The position numbers were made by a program, and so were the translations under genes. Below the pieces are notes generated by a model that worked only from the letters and a program-made list of their open reading frames with translations, did not search any database and was not told where the DNA came from. Positions 13,730 through 60,800 of a stretch of 64,000 bases of DNA are shown here, piece by piece. Numbering within the stretch: the first letter of the stretch is position 1; every line of letters begins with the position of its first letter. The DNA is from Nitrospinaceae bacterium (GTDB taxonomy: Bacteria > Nitrospinota > Nitrospinia > Nitrospinales > Nitrospinaceae), in the NCBI GenBank assembly GCA_965237905.1, contig OZ250172.1, positions 2,208,001 through 2,272,000 on the forward strand, in the 5' to 3' direction.

Positions 13730-14779
<1,050 letters not shown>

Positions 14780-14848: not shown

Positions 14849-14874
14849 CAGGCCACGCCTGGGGGAAATTTAAA

Positions 14875-15085
14875 ACCTCTCCCTTTATGAAAGCCTGTCC
14901 TGAGCCTGTCGAAGGAAAGGGGGCCAGGATACAGAATTCTAAAAGTCTCCTCTCCTCTCATGGGGAGAGGATTAAGGTGAGGGGTGGAGTTGTCACAACC
15001 TCCCCTGTATCCCCTCCTTGGTAAGGAGGTGGTTTGCTCCCCCTTGTTTGAAAGCCTGTCCTGAGCTTGTCGAAGGAAAGGGGGA
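14875..15085. repeat. Nested miniature repeat cluster including copy 2 of the 84-bp repeat (14946-15029)
   Basis: Two GAAAGCCTGTCCTGAGCYTGTCGAAGGAAAGGGGG units flank the 84-bp repeat. Confidence 0.85.
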
Positions 15086-15116
15086 CGGAGGGCAGTTATG
15101 GGTGTATACTAAAAAG

Positions 15117-15347
15117 ATGAAAGAAGTTAAGACAAAGTGCGATATGTGTGATCGCTTGTTTCAGTTCGGACCCGGCCGGTATAAGGGGAAGTATATTGAA
15201 CACTATGCAATGATCCTCTGCAATTCCTGCTTTAAAACCAATTGGGAGGGCTTTCCCCCCGGACTTGAGGCTCAATTCGTTGCGCATATGAAGAGCAAAG
15301 ATATTGCGTTACCCGAACGCAATAAACAAGGATGGTTCCCCCGTTAG
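15117..15347 (+). CDS. Small protein with two CxxC motifs, putative Zn-binding
   Basis: CDMC...CNSC; 76 aa. Confidence 0.6.
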   Translation: MKEVKTKCDMCDRLFQFGPGRYKGKYIEHYAMILCNSCFKTNWEGFPPGLEAQFVAHMKSKDIALPERNKQGWFPR

Positions 15348-15662
15348 ACGGATTTACTCCCCCCCTCCATCAGAAAACAACCCTCTCAGATAGCCGTTAT
15401 TGCCCGTTCTCTACCTCCCCCTTGTAAAGGGGGATGGGGGATTCCTCCTTTTGCTTTTATGAATATGCAGGGGGCTTTGGGGGGGGGGCGGAGGAGGGGT
15501 TTAGGAGTCAAAGAATGTGCAAGTCATTTTATTTCAAGACATTTGCTGGTAGTAATAAATTGGTTCGACTATAAAATAATAGTCTTGTGATTAAATTAAA
15601 ATCTTGACCAGTGTTTTATTTTTAGGATAATTAGGCTTCCCATGATCCCAAGAGGTATTTCC

Positions 15663-16277
15663 ATGAGTAGTGCTTTTGACTACAACAATGACAAACTAAA
15701 AATCCCGGGCCAATTTTTGGACGTTGGGAAGATTACCGTTATGTTTATGGATATTGTTGGGGTAAGTAAAAATGACAACCAGAAAATGAGAAATGCCTTT
15801 AGAACACTTCAGAATGCTCTTTCGGATATTTTGGTAAAAGTTAAATGGGACACTGAAGGTAGCGAAAATGGGGCCATTTTGATTCCGACGGGGGATGGCT
15901 ACGCCATAGGATTTGAACCAAACTTTGTTGATGATGAAGAGGCATTAAGATTCTCTCAAGAAATTTCGATTAGAATGAAAGAGGAAACTTTTCCTTTAAG
16001 GATAGGCATTAATAAAGGCCCATGCTTTGTCCATCTTGATTTAAATAAAAAAATAAATTTATGTGGTTGGGGAATAGTTGATGCCGAAAGGACAATGAGT
16101 TTAGGGGAACAAAACCACATTCTTTGTGAGGAAAGTTTTGCTAAACCAATCAAGGATAACCGTGCAAATTCAAAACTTATCAAACTAAAAAAATACTCCG
16201 TAAAACATGGTCGCGAATTAACCATATATAATTATTTTTCCAAAGATGAATTTGGAAACCATGACAAGCCGGAATGA
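15663..16277 (+). CDS. Stand-alone class III nucleotide cyclase-family protein
   Basis: VMFMDIVG, PTGDG, LRIGINKG, AER, ILC, VKHG; GAGGT RBS. Confidence 0.85.
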   Translation: MSSAFDYNNDKLKIPGQFLDVGKITVMFMDIVGVSKNDNQKMRNAFRTLQNALSDILVKVKWDTEGSENGAILIPTGDGYAIGFEPNFVDDEEALRFSQEISIRMKEETFPLRIGINKGPCFVHLDLNKKINLCGWGIVDAERTMSLGEQNHILCEESFAKPIKDNRANSKLIKLKKYSVKHGRELTIYNYFSKDEFGNHDKPE

Positions 16278-16281
16278 ATTT

Positions 16282-16827
16282 ATGACTAAGATGCCTTTAT
16301 CAAAAGACCAAAAATATTCATCCAAAGAAAACCATTATAGGGCAAAATTTGCCTGGAACCTTTATCTAGATATCAAATCCGCAATAAACAGTTTGCGTGG
16401 AAGGTTTGTTACTAGGGATAAGGCAGACAGGTTATTCAAGAAATTTATTACCTTAGAGGATTCAGATAAATTTTTTATTGTTAATAGTTTATCTAAGGTT
16501 GACAATGATGTTTCACGCGCTTTTCTTGAAACGGTTTTAATTTCAGATTTTAATGACGTAGTTAGACATGAGGCGGCTTTTTCTCTGGGTTGGGTAGGAG
16601 ATGAAATATCAAAAAACGTTCTAAAATCTGCAATTATTGATGATGAGAGTGTTTTGGTTCGGCATGAAGCTGTTATGGCTCTTTCTGAAATCGGATCGGA
16701 AGAGGACATTGACTTTGTAGAAGAAATTCTAACCTCTGAAGAAAATAAAGAAGTGATTCTGTCCTGCCATATAACACTTAAAAGATTAGATGATCGTATA
16801 AAAAAGTTACTCCCGCCTATTTCTTGA
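16282..16827 (+). CDS. HEAT-repeat protein with two VRHEA motifs (DOHH/PBS-lyase-like)
   Basis: DVVRHEAAFSLG and VLVRHEAVMALSEIG; ATG 4 nt after cyclase stop (start uncertain). Confidence 0.8.
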   Translation: MTKMPLSKDQKYSSKENHYRAKFAWNLYLDIKSAINSLRGRFVTRDKADRLFKKFITLEDSDKFFIVNSLSKVDNDVSRAFLETVLISDFNDVVRHEAAFSLGWVGDEISKNVLKSAIIDDESVLVRHEAVMALSEIGSEEDIDFVEEILTSEENKEVILSCHITLKRLDDRIKKLLPPIS

Positions 16828-16862
16828 CCCATAATATTTCCCTGGAGGCGAGGGTTTTTGGG

Positions 16863-17252
16863 TTAAATTAAACGCTCCCACAAAAACTCAAGTAAAACGT
16901 AATAGGCACAAACTATGGCTATTATTTTCCCCCAGAAAAAAATATTTGCTGGCCAATTTATTTGACGAGGCGGGTAAATTTCTTCTTCTTCACTTACTCC
17001 CGCGTCTCTCAATCTTTCCTTATAAATACCCCAGATCGCCGTTGGAACAATGCAATGAAGCAAATCTAAACTTAACCCCACGACAAGGAGGCCCCCTGCC
17101 CAATACAAATCAGGAGAGATGGTTAAGGTCCCGTTGATTTCGGTTCGAAAAACCCAGATCAAGGCAATCCCAGCAAAACCCAAATTTCTTACAACATCAC
17201 TGGTTTTTTTTGAATAATTGTAATATTCATCTTGAATTTCTTTGAATTTCAT
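16863..17252 (-). CDS. Small membrane protein (about 3 TM)
   Basis: Three hydrophobic segments; ATGA overlap with upstream gene. Confidence 0.8.
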   Translation of the reverse strand: MKFKEIQDEYYNYSKKTSDVVRNLGFAGIALIWVFRTEINGTLTISPDLYWAGGLLVVGLSLDLLHCIVPTAIWGIYKERLRDAGVSEEEEIYPPRQINWPANIFFWGKIIAIVCAYYVLLEFLWERLI

Positions 17253-17500
17253 CGTTTTTTACGGCTCGGTTTTGGTCCGGTACTATTTGTGCCTTTTCGA
17301 TTTACATTATCTCTTTTCGACGAATCAGGATTATCGCGGACATATTTTCTATTATTTATCTTTACTACATGCGCCCCCGGGTGCTTGCCTTCTTCCACTT
17401 CTTTGACAACTTGAGTACGGGGGACATTTTTTCTGGGTCCGATTTTGTAGGTTTCATTACGACCACCCGGTCCATCGTTGTTCCCTCTTATCTTAGTCAT
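17249..17500 (-). CDS. Small basic DUF3892-like protein
   Basis: YVRDNPDSSKRDNVN resembles DUF3892 YLRxxPD..NL motif; GGGAGG RBS. Confidence 0.6.
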   Translation of the reverse strand: MTKIRGNNDGPGGRNETYKIGPRKNVPRTQVVKEVEEGKHPGAHVVKINNRKYVRDNPDSSKRDNVNRKGTNSTGPKPSRKKR

Positions 17501-17817
17501 TGTTTACCTCCCACAAATGGCTGCTGTTAGATGGAATTTCTCAGCTTTTGTCAATCTACCTCATTTGAGTTTAAAAAACCAGAGACCAAAGGCCTACCAG
17601 TGTGGACCTAACAGCCTTCTCTTTTATTTTCCAATACAAAAATCGTTGAAGATCTGGTCGAGGAGGTCGTCAAGAACCAAGGGAACAGGGAAAAAGGAAC
17701 AGGGGGAAGGCAAACCCTATTCATCCAAGACAGCAAGAGGAGGAATCCCCCTGACCCCCTTTACAAGGGGGAACTTCAGAACTATCCTTGAGTTATGCGA
17801 ACAATTAGGAGGGAGAG

Positions 17818-18033
17818 ATGCGATATTTTGTAATTCTATGGGTAGTGGGATTGCTGGCGGGGTGCGCCGCGCCCCAGACTGTTATGCTTGAACATCCCAC
17901 TACTGGCAAGATTGTTCAATGCGGCCCTTTTGAGACGCTTATGGAGGAATCTCAATGTCTTGGTGATTTCGAGTCAAAGGGATATAAAAGAATCTGGCAA
18001 GAGCCACTCATAAAACCTGCCAATAGTTATTAA
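17818..18033 (+). CDS. Small lipoprotein
   Basis: Lipobox LAGC; GGAGG RBS; two further Cys. Confidence 0.7.
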   Translation: MRYFVILWVVGLLAGCAAPQTVMLEHPTTGKIVQCGPFETLMEESQCLGDFESKGYKRIWQEPLIKPANSY

Positions 18034-18617
18034 ACTAAAGCGGCCCCTTCATATTCAGGTTCAGTTGTCGCAAAGTATCGATAACCCCCGGTTAAGGTTA
18101 TGGTTGGACTAACCTTAACACCAAAACCGGCCATAAACTGGTAAGCGAAAACAGTTGCGCTATCATCTACAAATGGTGAAAACGGAACACCAGAAACAGA
18201 AAAGTCCGTATTGACATGGGCCACCCCGATTCCTCCGCCTAAATAAGGTACCAAAGAGAAGTTTGGTGTATGAAAATCATAATATCCATTTACCATGAAA
18301 CTTAAAGCTGAAATTTCACCATCGGCGTTTGTCACAACGCCTGGTAGCGAGGATTCATCAACATCATTGCTACGGTATGCAATTTCACCCTCTGCTCTGA
18401 TATTGCCATAATCATATCCTATCGCCCCGGCAATATTGAATCCCGGATCATAACTGGTTTCAAAAGCACTCCCGGGAATACTTGGGTATTCATCATCAGA
18501 ATCCATTAAAAAACTTACTCCCGCAAGCCCCGACACATACATTCCCTTATCTGCGGCCTGAGCAGATGTCGTGATAAAAGCCAAAGCAAAGACAGCCATC
18601 ACAAGTAATCGTTTCAT
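18030..18617 (-). pseudogene. Outer-membrane beta-barrel protein, apparently lacking last strand
   Basis: Signal peptide, GYDY, RAEGE, MVNGYYDF, PYLGGGIG, FAYQ, GYRYF; ends EGAALV without terminal aromatic strand. Confidence 0.55.
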
Positions 18618-18814
18618 TACCTCCCCTCCTATTAATGCAGTAAATTTAGATAAAAGGAAGCTTACAAAAGCCACCACTCTACAAGGGTAAATCTAAACAA
18701 GAATATACTACATTTTTGGCCGGTACGGTTAATCGCATTCCTGCTCGTTCATGCAACACAAACATTGGCCCTTCGCTGGTCCCTTAAATGCACCAGCCTT
18801 GCGCTGTGGTTGTA

Positions 18815-19249
18815 TCAGCGTCTTTTTGGAATCATCTTAAATTTAAAAAATGGAGCTTCCTTGAAAAAGTTGGCACTGCCGGGGACCGCCGCCGCGCGTC
18901 CAGCCGCAGAATCTTCCCGTTTTTTGAGGTCCGCTTGCTGTTCCGAGTATTTATCCCAAAGATACTTTTTAACATCATTCGGGGTGGGACCCAAAGCCTC
19001 CTTTTCCGCCCGCTTCAATTTTTGACGTGCTCGGATTTCCAAAACCGGATCGATCGCATCATCCGCAGAGGCCTCATCGACAATGCTGTTCAGAATCACT
19101 ATGATTTCCTCCCGCATTGCCAGTCGCTCCTTGAGGATGGTCTCGTAGGGCTCCAATACCTCAGGATCGGGTGCGGAATCACACCCCACTCCGGCCAAAA
19201 GTGCCAGTCCCAGGATGCCGCAGGCTAAGTATGTCGGATAACCTTTCAT
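18815..19249 (-). CDS. Hypothetical lipoprotein
   Basis: Signal peptide ending LAGVGC; helical body. Confidence 0.65.
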   Translation of the reverse strand: MKGYPTYLACGILGLALLAGVGCDSAPDPEVLEPYETILKERLAMREEIIVILNSIVDEASADDAIDPVLEIRARQKLKRAEKEALGPTPNDVKKYLWDKYSEQQADLKKREDSAAGRAAAVPGSANFFKEAPFFKFKMIPKRR

Positions 19250-19393: not shown

Positions 19394-20770
19394 TCACTTA
19401 CCAATACAGAAATCGACAAAGATCTGGTCGAGGAGGTCGTCGACGAAGGTTTTGCCGAGGATGCCGCCGAGGTGCTCGAGGGCGATGTTGAGGTCGACGG
19501 CGATGAGGTCTTCAGACCGGTCTTCCTGCAGGGATTGCGACACGCGCCCCAGCGCTTCCTGCGCCAGCGCCAGCGCCTGCCGGTGTCGTTCGCGTGTGAT
19601 CACCACCGCTTCGCCCGACGTTCTTCCCCCCAGCGCGGACTGATACAGGGCATCTTTTAAGGCGTCCATTCCATCCCCCGTCGTCGCCGACAGCGCCAGG
19701 AGGGCGGGGCCCTCAGCCAGCTTTTCCAGATCGGCGCCATCCAGTTTCTGCGGCAGATCGCTTTTGTTGAGGAGGACGAGTTTCTTTTTATCGGCCACTT
19801 CTTTAATCAGCATGGCGTCGTTGGTGTCGAGTGCCTGCGATCCGTCGAAGATCACCAGCGCGAGATCCGCCTGCGCCAGCGCGTGCCTTGTGCGCTCGAT
19901 GCCGTGCTCTTCGATTGTGCCCGGCTGGTGGCGGAGTCCGGCGGTATCGACAATCGTAATGTGGATGTCCCGGATGCGCACGCGTTCTTCGAGTGTGTCG
20001 CGCGTGGTGCCGGGGTGGGGGGTGACGATGGCGCGGTCTTCCTGCAACAGCGCGTTGAGCAGTGACGATTTGCCGACATTCGGTTTGCCGACCAGCGCGA
20101 CCCTTAAGCCTTCGCGGTAAATCCTGCCCTGGCGGTAGGAGTCGACCAGCTTTTTGATTTCCGCGTGTGTCCCCTGGATATTTTTATCGAGTTGTTGTTT
20201 CTGGGTGAACTCGAGTCCTTCTTCCGGGAAGTCGATCGCCGCCTCCAACTGCGCGAGGACCTGCACCAGCGCATCGTACAGTGCGTTGAGTTTGTCCGAG
20301 AGTTGGCCCTTGAGTTGGGCGAGGGCGGACGCCAGGGCTTTGTCCGACGCGGCGTGAATGACGTCGGCCACCGCTTCCGCCTGCGACAGGTCGAGCCTGC
20401 CATTGAGAAACGCGCGGCGTGTGAACTCGCCGGGTTCGGCGGCACGCGCTCCCTGGTCGAGCACGAGTTGCAAAATTTTCGAGGAGACATAGGTGCCGCC
20501 GTGGCCGTGAATTTCGATCACGTCTTCGCCGGTATAACTGTGCGGCGCGCGGAAGCGGATCAGCAGAACCTCGTCGACTGCCTGGCCGTTGGCGGGGTCG
20601 ATCAGGTTGCCGTAAACCACCCTCTGCGGTTCGAGGTCGGTTACCTTACCTCCGCCTTGCGGTTGGAACAGGGCCGAGGCGATGGGCACGGCTTCGGGGC
20701 CGCTGATGCGGATGATGTTGATGCCGCCTTCACCGATGGGTGTGGCAATGGCGGCGACTGTATCGTTCAT
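19394..20770 (-). CDS. mnmE: tRNA modification GTPase MnmE
   Basis: AAIATP, PHSYTGED, GKPNVGKSS, GTTRD, FCIGK. Confidence 0.97.
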   Translation of the reverse strand: MNDTVAAIATPIGEGGINIIRISGPEAVPIASALFQPQGGGKVTDLEPQRVVYGNLIDPANGQAVDEVLLIRFRAPHSYTGEDVIEIHGHGGTYVSSKILQLVLDQGARAAEPGEFTRRAFLNGRLDLSQAEAVADVIHAASDKALASALAQLKGQLSDKLNALYDALVQVLAQLEAAIDFPEEGLEFTQKQQLDKNIQGTHAEIKKLVDSYRQGRIYREGLRVALVGKPNVGKSSLLNALLQEDRAIVTPHPGTTRDTLEERVRIRDIHITIVDTAGLRHQPGTIEEHGIERTRHALAQADLALVIFDGSQALDTNDAMLIKEVADKKKLVLLNKSDLPQKLDGADLEKLAEGPALLALSATTGDGMDALKDALYQSALGGRTSGEAVVITRERHRQALALAQEALGRVSQSLQEDRSEDLIAVDLNIALEHLGGILGKTFVDDLLDQIFVDFCIGK

Positions 20771-48844: not shown

Positions 48845-49164
48845 CACATTCTAAAGAAAGGACTGATAAGCAGGCATTTAAAAGAGGAAAAATAAGAGGC
48901 GATTAACGAGGCTTTGTTGGTTTCGTTTTTAAAGGGATGATAGTGTTTTAGATTGGGTTTGTCGGCAAAGGGGATTCCCTGTTCGCTGTCCGCACCGCAC
49001 AATTGTATTAACACGTTTCTTAAATTGCTAATGCTTTCGTTTTTTGCCAATATATTCGATTAGGTTTTTTACTTCGAACAAGCACATTTGACGGGGCGGA
49101 TACGGCGCCACAAACAGATAAGAAAACAAAACTCAATTTAAGCAAGTGATAAGAGGTTCCGAAG

Positions 49165-50010
49165 TTAACACCACAATTGCTTTGTGATAGGGAACTTTTC
49201 GTAGCAATATTCATAAACATCTTTGTAGAACGATTTGACTTCACTTTCTAATTCATCATCTTGTTCAGTTTTATTTCTTGTTTTATTGACTCTAACTGCT
49301 CCATATTCCGCTTTTACTTGAACTTGGCAGAAATCTGGCAATCTCTCTATTTCTTCAGCGTTAAACAAATTCTCGTAAATTCCTACATAAACACCACTTT
49401 CGCCAAAAACACTGAGGGCTCGCTCAATTGTAATGTGATAATTAGTTCTGAATTTACAATGCTCAGATGCGTAGTATTGCCTCAAAGCATTAAAAAAGTT
49501 TTTCTCACCACTCTCTATTCCCTCATTGTAATTACCCCTATCCAAGTTAAATCTGACTGCACTCTTAACCCTATTTAAAGGATTTCGAATCAGAATTACC
49601 GCCTTACAATCAACTTCCCTATTTTGAAATTGACTATGAATAAATTTCAAACGTTTTTCACTCAAACCGCTGTATGAAGGGGTTATATCAGCCGAAACGG
49701 AAACACCGTCTACAAACAAGGAGTCAAAATAATCGAAGTAAAAATTTTCTTCTGTCTGCATTCGATGTCTAAGAAGTATTGCTTTGTTTGCAAATAACTT
49801 CTCTTTTAGTGGAACTTTTCCTATTAAATTGCGTCTGAGCGGAGGTAAATCTAACCCATCCCCAATATGGTATTCCTTAGCAAATCCGCCATCGTAGTTT
49901 TTATGTTGCCTCAGATATTCAGACAACCAAGTTGTACCACATTTTTGACAACCCAAACCTAACAAAAATTTCTTCTGAGACACCATATTTTTCATCCGAA
50001 AATCAATCAT
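49165..50010 (-). CDS. Sulfotransferase-family protein
   Basis: GCQKCGTTWL (5'-PSB), KEYH, DITPSY, IRNPLNRVKS (3'-PB); AT-rich. Confidence 0.85.
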   Translation of the reverse strand: MIDFRMKNMVSQKKFLLGLGCQKCGTTWLSEYLRQHKNYDGGFAKEYHIGDGLDLPPLRRNLIGKVPLKEKLFANKAILLRHRMQTEENFYFDYFDSLFVDGVSVSADITPSYSGLSEKRLKFIHSQFQNREVDCKAVILIRNPLNRVKSAVRFNLDRGNYNEGIESGEKNFFNALRQYYASEHCKFRTNYHITIERALSVFGESGVYVGIYENLFNAEEIERLPDFCQVQVKAEYGAVRVNKTRNKTEQDDELESEVKSFYKDVYEYCYEKFPITKQLWC

Positions 50011-56985: not shown

Positions 56986-57011
56986 AAAATTATTTGTTAA
57001 ACGGAGGGTTT

Positions 57012-57221
57012 ATGTACAGGCAGGTAACTACTGTAAAAGTTAGAACGATTTGTGATGGTTGTTGGAATGAAAATATTAATAATTTTGAACCCTCAGGTAT
57101 TCCTGGAGAAATCCGCTGTTCTTGTGGAACTATAAATTATCGAGATGTTTTTCCAGAATTTACGTCCACTGACGGAGTTTTATATTTTAAGATTATCAAT
57201 TCTGTGTACATTCAAAATTAA
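57012..57221 (+). CDS. Small Cys-containing protein (CxxC...CxC), 69 aa
   Basis: GGAGG RBS; CDGC and CSCG. Confidence 0.55.
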   Translation: MYRQVTTVKVRTICDGCWNENINNFEPSGIPGEIRCSCGTINYRDVFPEFTSTDGVLYFKIINSVYIQN

Positions 57222-57272
57222 TACTTTGCAATTGTTTAAAATGTTGATTGTTGGGAATTGGAGCAACAGGTA

Positions 57273-57288
57273 GCCCCATATGTTGTGG
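57273..57288. promoter_or_regulatory. NrdR-like box
   Basis: GCCCCATATGTTGTGG vs consensus acaCwAtATaTwGtgt. Confidence 0.45.
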
Positions 57289-57639
57289 TGCTATATTTAA
57301 TTTCCCTATATGATTTTTTAGATTTTTAATATATTGAAAAATTGATAGTTCCAATTTTTAAAAAACTTTCCACAGTTTACTAAGGCAGAAATTAAGGGAA
57401 TTAGCCCCCTTCCTAACTTTTCCCTCTGTTTTTTATTTGGTAAATCATAAAGAGAAACTTACCAAGCCCAACTTAGGCTCTCCATCAATATAACCCCTTC
57501 TCAAACCCCAAGAAACCAAGTTAATAATTAATTAATTTAGATTTTTACCTATTTCTAGCTTTAAGTAAAAAAGAGCTAAATTTATAAACCCTTATGGCTA
57601 AAAGGGTTGAAAAGTCGACGCAATTTATGGGTAAATTTC

Positions 57640-57695
57640 AGTTGACACCACAATATATAGTGGTATGTTTATCAACAAGATACCAAGTTTGGTAT
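57640..57695 (+). promoter_or_regulatory. nrdJ promoter with tandem NrdR boxes
   Basis: TTGACA-CCACAATATATAGTGG-TATGTT; second degenerate box ATACCAAGTTTGGTAT starting 32 bp later. Confidence 0.85.
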
Positions 57696-57754
57696 TGACA
57701 TAGGCTTTATGCTGGAACTGCGTAAGCAGTTCCAGCATAAAGCCTATGTCAATA
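57693..57754. repeat. Perfect 29-bp inverted repeat with GTAA loop
   Basis: TATTGACATAGGCTTTATGCTGGAACTGC-GTAA-reverse complement. Confidence 0.95.
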
Positions 57755-57895
57755 AAATGTGACTGAACTGAATTCAATTAGCTCTAGATCTTTAATAAGC
57801 ATAAAGTTACGACATTAAAAGTATAAAAAAATTCCTCGATAGGGAAACTATCGAGGAATTAGAAACTTTATTTAAGCTACTTTTTGGAGAGATTC

Positions 57896-60800
57896 ATGCA
57901 TATTCACCGCGCTTTTACCCAGGGTTTAGACGATGCCTACAGTGGCCTCACTTTTGAAGAACGGACCTCGAGAATTATCAACGCCGACGGTTCGGTAGTT
58001 TCTGAGATCGATAATGTAGGTGTGCCCAGTATGTGGTCACAGATGGCGGTGGACATCATGGCCCAGAAATATTTCCGCAAAGCCGGTGTTCCGGCACGCA
58101 CCAAAAAGCGATATGAAGCGGGTGTTCCCGAATGGCTGTGTCCTTCCGAAGCGGATATCGAAGCTCTTTCCCAACTGCCCGAAGGGGAACGGTTTGGAAG
58201 CGAGACTGATTCGCGCCAAGTGTTTCGCCGGCTGGCCGGGTGCTGGACCTACTGGGGATGGAAGAGCGGATGCTTCAGCAATGAAGATGCCGCCCGCGCT
58301 TATTATGACGATATGCGTTACATGTTGGCCCACCAGTATGCCGCGCCCAATTCCCCGCAGTGGTTCAACACCGGATTGAACTGGGCTTACGGAGTTGAAG
58401 GACCGGCGCAGGGCCATTACTTCACCAATCCGGAAACCGGCCTGCCCGAAAAATCGAAAACCGCCTACGAACGGCCGCAACCGCATGCCTGCTTCATTCT
58501 TTCCGTCAGCGATGACTTGGTGAACGAAGGCGGCATCATGGACCTGTGGCAACAGGAAGCGCGTCTATTCAAATACGGGTCCGGTACTGGCACCAATTTT
58601 TCGAAACTGCGCGGAGCGGGAGAATCCTTGTCCGGCGGTGGCCAATCGTCCGGCCTGATGAGTTTTCTGAAGATCGGTGACCGCGCGGCAGGCGCCATCA
58701 AATCCGGCGGCACCACACGCCGCGCCGCCAAGATGGTTACCCTCGACATCGACCACCCCGATATCGAAGAGTTCATCGAATGGAAAGTTAAGGAAGAGCG
58801 CAAAGTCGCCGCACTGGCGGTGGGGAGCAAGTTGTGCCGCAAGCATCTCAAGAACGTTTTGCAGTCCTGCTGGGACTGGAATGACGAAGAGAACCGGTTC
58901 AACATTCACTCCAATAAGAAACTGCGCAAGGCAGTGCGGGCAGCGGTGCGCGATTTCATTCCGGAAAACTATCTGTACCGCATCATCCAGTTGGGGACGC
59001 AGGGCGTGCGCGACGTCGAGTTCGAGGAATACGACACCAATTGGACCTCGGAAGCCTACCAGACGGTATCGGGCCAGAACTCCAACAACTCGGTGCGCCT
59101 GACCAACGATTTTTTGAAGGCGGTCGAAAACGACAGGACGTGGGACCTCACCTCCCGCACCAGCGGCAAAGCGGTTAAAACCGTAAAAGCCCGCGATTTG
59201 TGGGAGAAGGTCAACGAATCGTCCTGGGCCTCTGCAGATCCCGGCGTGCAGTTCGACACCACGGTCAACGAGTGGCATACCTGTCCGGAAGGCGGCCGCA
59301 TCAACGCGTCCAATCCCTGCTCGGAATACATGTTTTTGGACGACACCGCGTGCAACCTCGCTTCGATCAACCTGATCCAGTTTTATAACGAGGAGAGCGG
59401 ACAATTCGACGTGCCCCGGTTCATCGAAGCCTGCCGGTTGTGGACGCTGACGCTTGAAATTTCCGTGGCCATGGCGCAGTTTCCGAACAAGGCCATCGCG
59501 CAGAAAAGTTATGAGTACCGCACTCTGGGTCTCGGTTACGCTAACCTCGGAACCCTGCTGATGGTTCAGGGGATTGCTTACGATTCGAAAGAAGCGCTGG
59601 CCATCACCGGTGCGATCACGGCATTGATGACGGGTACCTCGTACGCCATGTCCGCCGAAATGGCGGCCGAGCTGGGGCCGTTCTCACGGTACGAGGCCAA
59701 CAAGAAACACATGTTGCGGGTGATCCGTAACCATCGCCGCGCCGCTTACAACTGCGATTCCTACGAGTACGAAGGCCTCACCACCTTCCCGCAGGGCATC
59801 GACGCCGCGTATTGTCCCGAATATCTCCGGACCGCGGCGGTAGAGTCGTGGGACCGCGCTCTGGAGTTGGGTGTTCGTCACGGCTACCGCAATGCACAGA
59901 CCACCTGTATCGCCCCGACCGGCACCATCGGCTTGTTGATGGATTGCGACACCACAGGCATCGAGCCCGACTTCGCACTGGTCAAGTATAAGAAACTGGC
60001 AGGTGGGGGTTACTTTAAGATCATCAACCAATCGGTGCCCATGGCGCTGAGGAAGCTGGGATATCTGGAACCGGAGATCAATGATATCGTCAGCTATTGC
60101 GTGGGTTCGGGTAGTCTCGCCATGTCCCCGATCATCAACCACGAATCGTTGAGGTCCAAAGGCTTTACCGACGAGGTGCTGGAGAAGGTAGAAAAAGAAT
60201 TACCGAAAGCGTTCGACATAACGTTTGCCTTCAACAGACATGTTATCGGGGAGACCTTCTGCAAGGAGACTCTAGGCATCAAAGAAGAGTTGTTGGACGA
60301 TTTCAGATTCAACATGCTCAAGTATTTGGGATTCTCCGATGACGACATCTGCATGGCCAACGACGCGGTGTGCGGCACCATGACTATTGAAGGCGCGCCG
60401 CACTTGGATGAAAAACATTACCCGATCTTCGACTGCGCCAACAAGTGCGGCAAGTACGGCAAGCGGTTTATCCGTCACGAAGCGCATATTCATAAAATGG
60501 CCGCCGCCCAGCCGTTTATTTCCGGCGCGATCTCCAAGACCATCAACATGCCCAACAGCTCCTCGGTCAAGGAGGTGGAAACCGCTCACATGCAATCGTG
60601 GAAATTGATGCTCAAAGGAACGGCGGTTTATCGCGATGGGTCCAAACTCAGCCAGCCGCTCAACAGTGTGGCGGCAGACGACTTCAAGCTGTCCACGCTG
60701 GAGGATGAAGAGGAAAAAACGCCTCTCAAGGTGGCGGAGGAAATGGTGCAACAGGTCATGAAGCGCCATACCCTGCCTCACCGCCGGAAAGGCTACACGC

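Follow-up and report, generated by a model that had tools for sequence, protein, structure and literature searches.

The locus described here raises the question of what a stand-alone class III nucleotidyl cyclase does together with a small HEAT protein encoded directly behind it. The first-pass annotation of the window (the whole stretch of 64,000 nucleotides that was analysed) had proposed a new signalling or anti-phage system, in which a homodimer of the HEAT protein would rebuild a di-iron site and act as sensor or effector for an unusual cyclic nucleotide. The features of the window are collected in Table 1.

Table 1. Positions in the window of the cyclase-HEAT pair and of the features around it.
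Feature	Position	Strand	Remarks
Variable cargo slot	15018..19249		between sigma-54 regulator (13730-14779) and mnmE (19394-20770)
Sigma-70-like promoter match, 10/12	15604..15631	+	just 5' of cyclase; weak
Class III nucleotidyl cyclase, stand-alone, 204 aa	15663..16277	+	from ORF, Pfam, fold and residues
Half-DOHH HEAT protein, 181 aa (P0028)	16282..16827	+	called product; open frame from 16246; homodimeric di-iron hydroxylase predicted
Convergent 129-aa membrane protein, common unnamed family	16863..17252	-	probably outside the system

A purine-rich, ribosome-binding-like tract lies 8 nt 5' of the cyclase start; the promoter match has to be regarded as weak, because the number of such matches in the region is at the chance level. 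The cyclase was matched weakly by Pfam PF00211 (E 1.3e-8), and the top structural matches of its AlphaFold2 model (pLDDT 92.6) were class III cyclases (Foldseek E 6e-10), the best VIA match being 3et6 (Z 19.4, rmsd 2.4, 171 residues aligned); the modelled fold is that of the cyclase homology domain. According to the alignment to RhoGC and the family rows, the metal ligands D30 and D78 and the transition-state Arg, R143, are retained and are invariant or near-invariant in the family. The same alignment places I74 at the Lys/Glu site and N132 at the Asp/Cys site, and V139 stands in place of the transition-state Asn. Both statements made earlier about this protein were thus confirmed, namely that it is a stand-alone class III cyclase with the two metal Asp residues and the Arg, and that its Ile/Asn base sites with Val for the Asn carry neither the canonical adenylate (Lys/Asp) nor the canonical guanylate (Glu/Cys) signature. 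A 3',5'-cyclic nucleotide is predicted as the product; the odd base-site residues alone are no proof of an odd one.

The HEAT product starts 4 nt past the cyclase stop and carries His-Glu at residues 96 and 128, in two Arg-His-Glu motifs, in agreement with the first description of a protein with two His-Glu motifs directly downstream; both motifs are invariant in 19/19 HEAT partners. The family profile of these 19 partners aligns to each half of human DOHH, which is also its best non-designed match in the PDB (E 4e-34), and the proposed half-DOHH nature of the protein was thereby borne out. DOHH hydroxylates C2 of an aminobutyl group, and its four His-Glu motifs provide six ligands to the iron (PMC9117371); one chain of the HEAT protein has two such motifs. 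Two half-size chains would supply the four motifs and the six iron ligands of DOHH, and the simplest reading of the sequence is that a homodimer would rebuild a DOHH-like di-iron site. The likeness to eukaryotic DOHH (PDB 4D4Z) and to its archaeal half-size homologues lies in the His-Glu pair, the spacing and the closing Cys helix, which match each DOHH half. Among database entries the HEAT protein is closest to half-size proteins from archaea, many of which are labelled deoxyhypusine monooxygenase, and in a quick tree long branches separate the HEAT partner from the archaeal half-DOHH proteins. Unlike DOHH, the HEAT protein is one half only, evolves faster, belongs to a bacterial host without eIF5A and is linked with a cyclase instead of DHS.

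Related loci were collected by scans, which gave 43 loci, or 32 after merging 11 duplicates. Two weak matches (L034, L044) and four loci with a contig end at most 75 nt from the cyclase (L003, L006, L012, L042) were set aside. Among the 26 informative loci the partner was HEAT in 12, a radical SAM/SPASM protein in 11, both in none and neither in 3. The HEAT gene lies downstream of the cyclase in 9 loci (clipped by the contig end in one of them), upstream in 2 and is fused to it in 1; with L030 and P0162 two HEAT-cyclase fusions are known, both with HEAT N-terminal to the cyclase. The two genes therefore co-occur elsewhere, a point on which the first proposal depended, since HEAT is adjacent or fused in 12/26 informative loci, to which P0162 is added as the second fusion. 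Gaps between cyclase and partner genes range from -4 to 74 nt. The pairwise distances of cyclase and partner are correlated with r 0.76 in 10 HEAT pairs and in 11 radical-SAM pairs (permutation p 2e-4); this correlation reflects joint descent, not contact, and is expected of any co-transferred pair. Chance adjacency of cyclase and HEAT was considered and rejected, being countered by the presence of one partner in 23/26 loci, the fusions and the co-divergence. Cyclase and HEAT form a conserved, sporadically distributed two-gene module.

Genome samples gave the same picture. The HEAT profile had matches in 1/120 and 2/401 genomes and the radical-SAM profile in 1/401, and with the exception of one extra HEAT match (L151), which belongs to a different HE-HEAT subfamily, these were the cyclase-linked copies; neither partner was found without a cyclase by profile searches of the samples of 120 and 401 genomes. 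The phylum samples contained cyclase matches in 1/401 and 3/401 genomes, of which the two new ones were outgroup types of 702 and 734 aa, so that no new family member was added. The extra match, L151 (genome G635 of the Acidobacteriota sample), is a stand-alone 166-aa HE-HEAT protein on a short contig; its 3-kb locus contains no cyclase, and it is possibly a binning stray. HE-HEAT-like matches in six viral contigs (L057-L062), near terminase- or portal-like genes, were rejected; they fall in no plus-strand ORF of at least 60 aa and are probably an antisense artefact. The partner-less loci are L016/17, truncated by a transposase, L032/43, which are broken, and L019, where a membrane protein comes next. 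At this last locus (L019:733-4549) no oxidising partner lies downstream of the cyclase, and the genes that come next encode a multi-pass membrane protein of 411 aa, an S-adenosylmethionine decarboxylase and a DUF3326 protein; the polyamine enzyme may be there by chance.

In the 11 loci with the other partner, the place of HEAT is taken by a gene for a radical SAM/SPASM protein of about 360 aa, similar to AF0577/TIGR04084. These partners score best against TIGR04084, with 140-206 bits, which is below the curated cut-off of 225 in 6/6 tested, and they keep the CxxxCxxC, the GGEP, the SPASM cysteines and the archaeal C-terminal Glu-x-Ile-Pro tail. In a quick tree with 6 generic SPASM outgroups they group with archaeal TIGR04084 members (SH-aLRT 97). 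Thus TIGR04084 is the best family over the full length of the partner, with a common tail and within one clade; compared with it the partner is a bacterial offshoot, operonic with a cyclase, whereas the named true members are archaeal.

The two partners were compared with the respiratory genes of their hosts. COX1 (heme-copper oxidase) was present in 3/3 named HEAT hosts and in 0/4 named radical-SAM hosts, these 7 genomes belonging to nested clades, and bd was present in 2/4 of the radical-SAM hosts. COX1 was not found in the window's own genome, which is of the HEAT type, and cytochrome bd is represented there by no more than a partial, bd-like match. The L042 genome, with a cyclase of the radical-SAM clade and the partner beyond the contig end, has a divergent COX1-family match. 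It is a familiar situation that a di-iron oxygenase carries out an oxidation with O2 and a radical SAM enzyme carries out the same one without it, AcsF/BchE being an example. We infer that the HEAT and radical-SAM partners would catalyse the same reaction, the former with O2 and the latter without it. Since the swap fits this pattern of analogues, it is more likely that the HEAT protein is an oxidising enzyme and not a receptor of a cyclic nucleotide.

The nearest sequence relatives of the cyclase are large multidomain class III cyclases of the PTGDG type (about 1,400 clusters at E<=1e-10), which are possibly the 'immune clade 1' of 10.64898/2026.08.12.744502. A scan of this outgroup (n=62) found at least 23 kinase fusions, 5 with NB-ARC/NACHT/iSTAND, and TPR fusions too. 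A quick tree built from 202 domains separated the 111 multidomain relatives from a clade of 91 (SH-aLRT 100) made up of the partnered cyclases and their kin. The base sites are L/I in 91% and N in 94% of the 111 outgroup rows, so hydrophobic/Asn base sites are no mark of this system; what had been reported on the non-canonical sites is right as to the residues but does not hold as a feature special to the pair. The clade is set apart by an insertion ahead of beta-2, in which W62 and N69 are invariant and are accompanied by an adjoining acidic residue; it occurs in 87/91 ingroup and 1/111 outgroup cyclases. The PTGDG-type cyclases, which share the base sites, are without this W...N insertion and the N-terminal extension, and keep the transition-state Asn. 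A single Lys of the cyclase, K181, comes close to being invariant, and the outgroup without partners conserves it to the same degree. Within the clade the transition-state Asn is found in 0/11 HEAT-paired cyclases spanning the site, where V or I is present, and in 11/11 radical-SAM-paired ones. Because this residue co-varies with the type of partner, the HEAT-type and radical-SAM-type cyclases may differ in product.

A defence role of the cyclase family is likely. Two operons, L018:1715-4052 and L022:652-2996, contain cyclase, radical SAM and PycTM (PADLOC E 1e-17 to 1e-19 for PycTM), a convergent TIR gene stands beside L015/L039, and a cyclase-TIR fusion (P0164) and a SEFIR-cyclase fusion (P0166) fall within the clade of the W62 loop. 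Recognised effectors (PycTM, TIR) were thus beside 4/11 radical-SAM loci and 0/12 HEAT loci. In the window there is neither a PycTM nor a CNBD-TIR effector, and PycTM was not found in the window's own genome. From the 23 partner-bearing loci 5 were too short; mobile or defence neighbours were found in 14 of the 18 with usable flanks and none in 4/18, as a raw count without a background rate. The neighbour types were transposase, integrase, recombinase, portal, restriction, Avs, HipA, PIN, ABC-three-component and effector. The module as a whole probably serves anti-phage defence, and the copy in the window may do so too. In L021, L023 and L040, close relatives of L018/L022, the PycTM gene is missing.

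The comparison with Pycsar/Pucsar shows likeness in the stand-alone class III cyclase, the altered base pocket and, at 2 related loci, PycTM as a third gene. PycC structures (8jsz, 7r65, 8jsf) match the window cyclase model with Z 14-17; purine cyclases match equally well or better. Residues 1-18 of the cyclase are coil in the AlphaFold2 monomer model; the hallmark of PycC is an N-terminal helix (PMC11224242). The PADLOC check that had been suggested gave no match for the window cyclase at E<=0.1, PycC models included, and the latter gave none for six relatives at 1e-5; NCBIfam had no match to the window cyclase either. Unlike in Pycsar, an oxidising partner is nearly obligate, and few loci have an effector. 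The module would, judged by its genes, be a cNMP-cyclase conflict system that resembles Pycsar in outline yet falls outside it. It also resembles the ancillary enzymes of type II/IV CBASS (Cap2/Cap3, Cap9-11) in that modifying enzymes derived from housekeeping ones stand beside an immune cyclase; CBASS differs in its CD-NTase fold and in using conjugation chemistry, not oxidation. The cyclase was absent from the plasmid and phage record collections and viral contigs searched, and a BFVD search with it returned generic cyclases only. The radical-SAM partner was likewise not found in the plasmid/phage record collections, and its viral matches were generic only, mostly with 21-28% identity.

The first-pass annotation had not recognised the pairing as described, and a full-text literature search agreed, finding no account of the cyclase-HEAT pairing or of TIGR04084 function. 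No description of the pairing was found in passages of Kaur et al. 2020 (PMC7159879), Hou et al. 2024 (PMC11224242) and two defence preprints (one of them 10.64898/2025.12.03.692087). The Pucsar preprint (10.64898/2026.08.12.744502) gives five subclades, with E2/JAB, WYL, caspase and luciferase-like neighbours; its main text has no HEAT or radical SAM partners, and its Table S1 or Figure 1 could contain these loci.

Both partners appear to come from archaeal families that are tied, or can be tied, to hypusination. Hypusine has been reported in Sulfolobus acidocaldarius and in anaerobic Crenarchaea, and deoxyhypusine in halophiles and methanogens (PMC5178350). Among 14 control genomes, 4 of them archaeal, TIGR04084 was found in S. 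acidocaldarius only and not in H. volcanii, M. jannaschii or M. acetivorans (P0422, P0431). The accounts in PMC5178350 and PMC6105217 know no archaeal DOHH, and PMC7909649 describes Entamoeba (E. histolytica) as being without DOHH. TIGR04084 is therefore a candidate for the missing O2-independent deoxyhypusine hydroxylase, but only as a lead, since there is 1 positive in 4 archaea and no radical SAM protein is among the 31 proteins co-purifying with S. solfataricus aIF5A in Table 2 of PMC6105217. DHS was present in none of the loci and in 2/5 hosts, the window's own genome included, and was missing in 3/5. A bacterial pathway of EF-P hypusination was rejected, as a link to DHS was lacking.

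Our tentative reading, which is possible but not to be pressed, is that the module consists of a cyclase and an oxidising partner that acts on an aminobutyl group or polyamine and thereby gates the cyclase, probably in defence. Observed in its favour are the fold, the motifs, the linkage, the fusion, the co-divergence and the replacement of HEAT by radical SAM in anaerobe-type hosts. The half-DOHH HEAT protein would likely dimerise to an O2-using di-iron hydroxylase, and the HEAT or radical-SAM partner would hydroxylate a C-H of a 4-aminobutyl group; such a substrate is suggested because HEAT is a half-DOHH and the archaeal family of the radical-SAM partner tracks reported hypusine. The substrate would most plausibly be a polyamine (of the spermidine, homospermidine or putrescine type) or a polyamine-bearing product, which is favoured over oxidation of the cyclase since the loci lack DHS, only 2/5 hosts have it, and K181 is generic. 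The cyclase might read or use the aminobutyl group through the aromatic-plus-acidic W62 loop, so that its output would be tied to the state of hydroxylation. Where PycTM or TIR is encoded, the cyclic nucleotide would then open that effector; copies without an effector, the window pair among them, would depend on a host or remote receptor or would act as an NTP drain.

The target of the oxidation could instead be the cyclase protein, the partner being a maturase or regulator that oxidises it, for example in the W62...N69 loop, as an on/off switch comparable with type II/IV CBASS or enzymatic antitoxins. DOHH and most SPASM enzymes do act on proteins or peptides (PMC9117371; NCBIfam matches), Cap2/Cap3 conjugate the CBASS cyclase (10.64898/2025.12.03.692087), the invariant loop is confined to the partnered clade, and the effector is missing at most loci, as in a two-gene unit of the toxin-antitoxin kind. 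However, the loop could be structural, the equal conservation of K181 in the unpartnered outgroup leaves no system-specific target residue of the DOHH type, and recruitment from two hypusine-linked families would go unexplained, so we consider this account doubtful. Tailoring of the nucleotide itself, NTP or cNMP, to a modified cNMP that evades phage nucleases or sponges, or is antiviral in its own right as in the case of viperin, would suit the logic of a two-enzyme operon with fusions, the unusual base pocket, the co-variation of the transition-state residue with the partner and the PycTM gene downstream in L018/L022. It is nevertheless unlikely, as DOHH and TIGR04084 have no known action on nucleotides, the base-site residues also occur in unpartnered cyclases, and viperin identity of the radical-SAM partner was rejected at 64 bits against a cut-off of 180, compared with 140-206 bits to TIGR04084.

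The role first proposed for the HEAT dimer, that of sensor or effector, would require it to bind the cyclic nucleotide or to report O2 or iron to the cyclase without turnover. In its favour, no other effector is present at the HEAT loci, both fusions place HEAT N-terminal to the cyclase like a sensory domain, and di-iron and Fe-S centres can both sense O2. Against it, domain searches found no nucleotide-binding domain in the HEAT protein, its slot is held in 11 loci by an unrelated radical SAM/SPASM enzyme whose retained CxxxCxxC, GGEP, SPASM cysteines and archaeal tail speak for catalysis, and the recognised effectors are separate PycTM or TIR genes; this part of the first proposal was not supported, and we regard such a role as improbable. 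It is also very unlikely that the HEAT-type module has no part in defence signalling, with a weak or inactive cyclase in a small metabolic or decaying cargo unit. All HEAT-paired cyclases spanning the transition-state site (n=11) have V or I there, HEAT loci lack effectors, the window cyclase has no PADLOC or NCBIfam match, and 4/18 flanked loci are without mobile or defence neighbours, all of which would suit that account. Yet both Asp, the Arg and the Lys are near-invariant across 40-75% identity, and loss of the Asn need not abolish activity, Rv1900c being an established cyclase without it (PMC4886424). The sporadic spread and the long branches towards the archaeal half-DOHH proteins also speak against it.

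Should the gating by oxidation hold, an oxidative step, O2-dependent and O2-independent, would be added to cyclic-nucleotide immunity, possibly with a new signal or a new gating of the cyclase. The wider claim, which we hold to be rather unlikely, is that of a new class of nucleotide-signalling immunity with a cyclase gated by hydroxylation of a polyamine-type aminobutyl group, served by a homodimeric half-DOHH in aerobes and by a TIGR04084-like radical SAM enzyme in anaerobes, both taken from archaeal hypusination. In that case the O2-independent deoxyhypusine hydroxylase that has long been sought in Crenarchaeota and anaerobic protists would be TIGR04084, with half-DOHH as its counterpart in aerobic archaea. 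Defence aside, the swap makes the question of the missing archaeal hypusine hydroxylase directly testable, with TIGR04084 as a named candidate.

The pair has a GC content of 35.1%, compared with 50.5% for the genome, which places it in the lowest 0.2% of windows of the same size, so the description as an AT-rich island was correct. Different genes fill the cargo slot in the congeners examined, and neither the cyclase nor the HEAT gene was detected in 119 other genomes of the phylum. The convergent membrane protein was rejected as cognate effector, since none of the related loci has a homologue; its nearest named Atlas cluster is PycTM (0.78), which is a lead only. A small Cys-rich protein with two CxxC (15018-15347, + strand) is also present in the congener G008, where umuDC-like genes are next to it. 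Short intergenic repeats at 14850-15100, 15400-15500 and 17700-17800 flank the cargo genes of the slot and have 9-15 further copies in the genome. Further stretches of low GC content in the window are found at 49001-50000 (0.36) and 57001-58000 (0.34).
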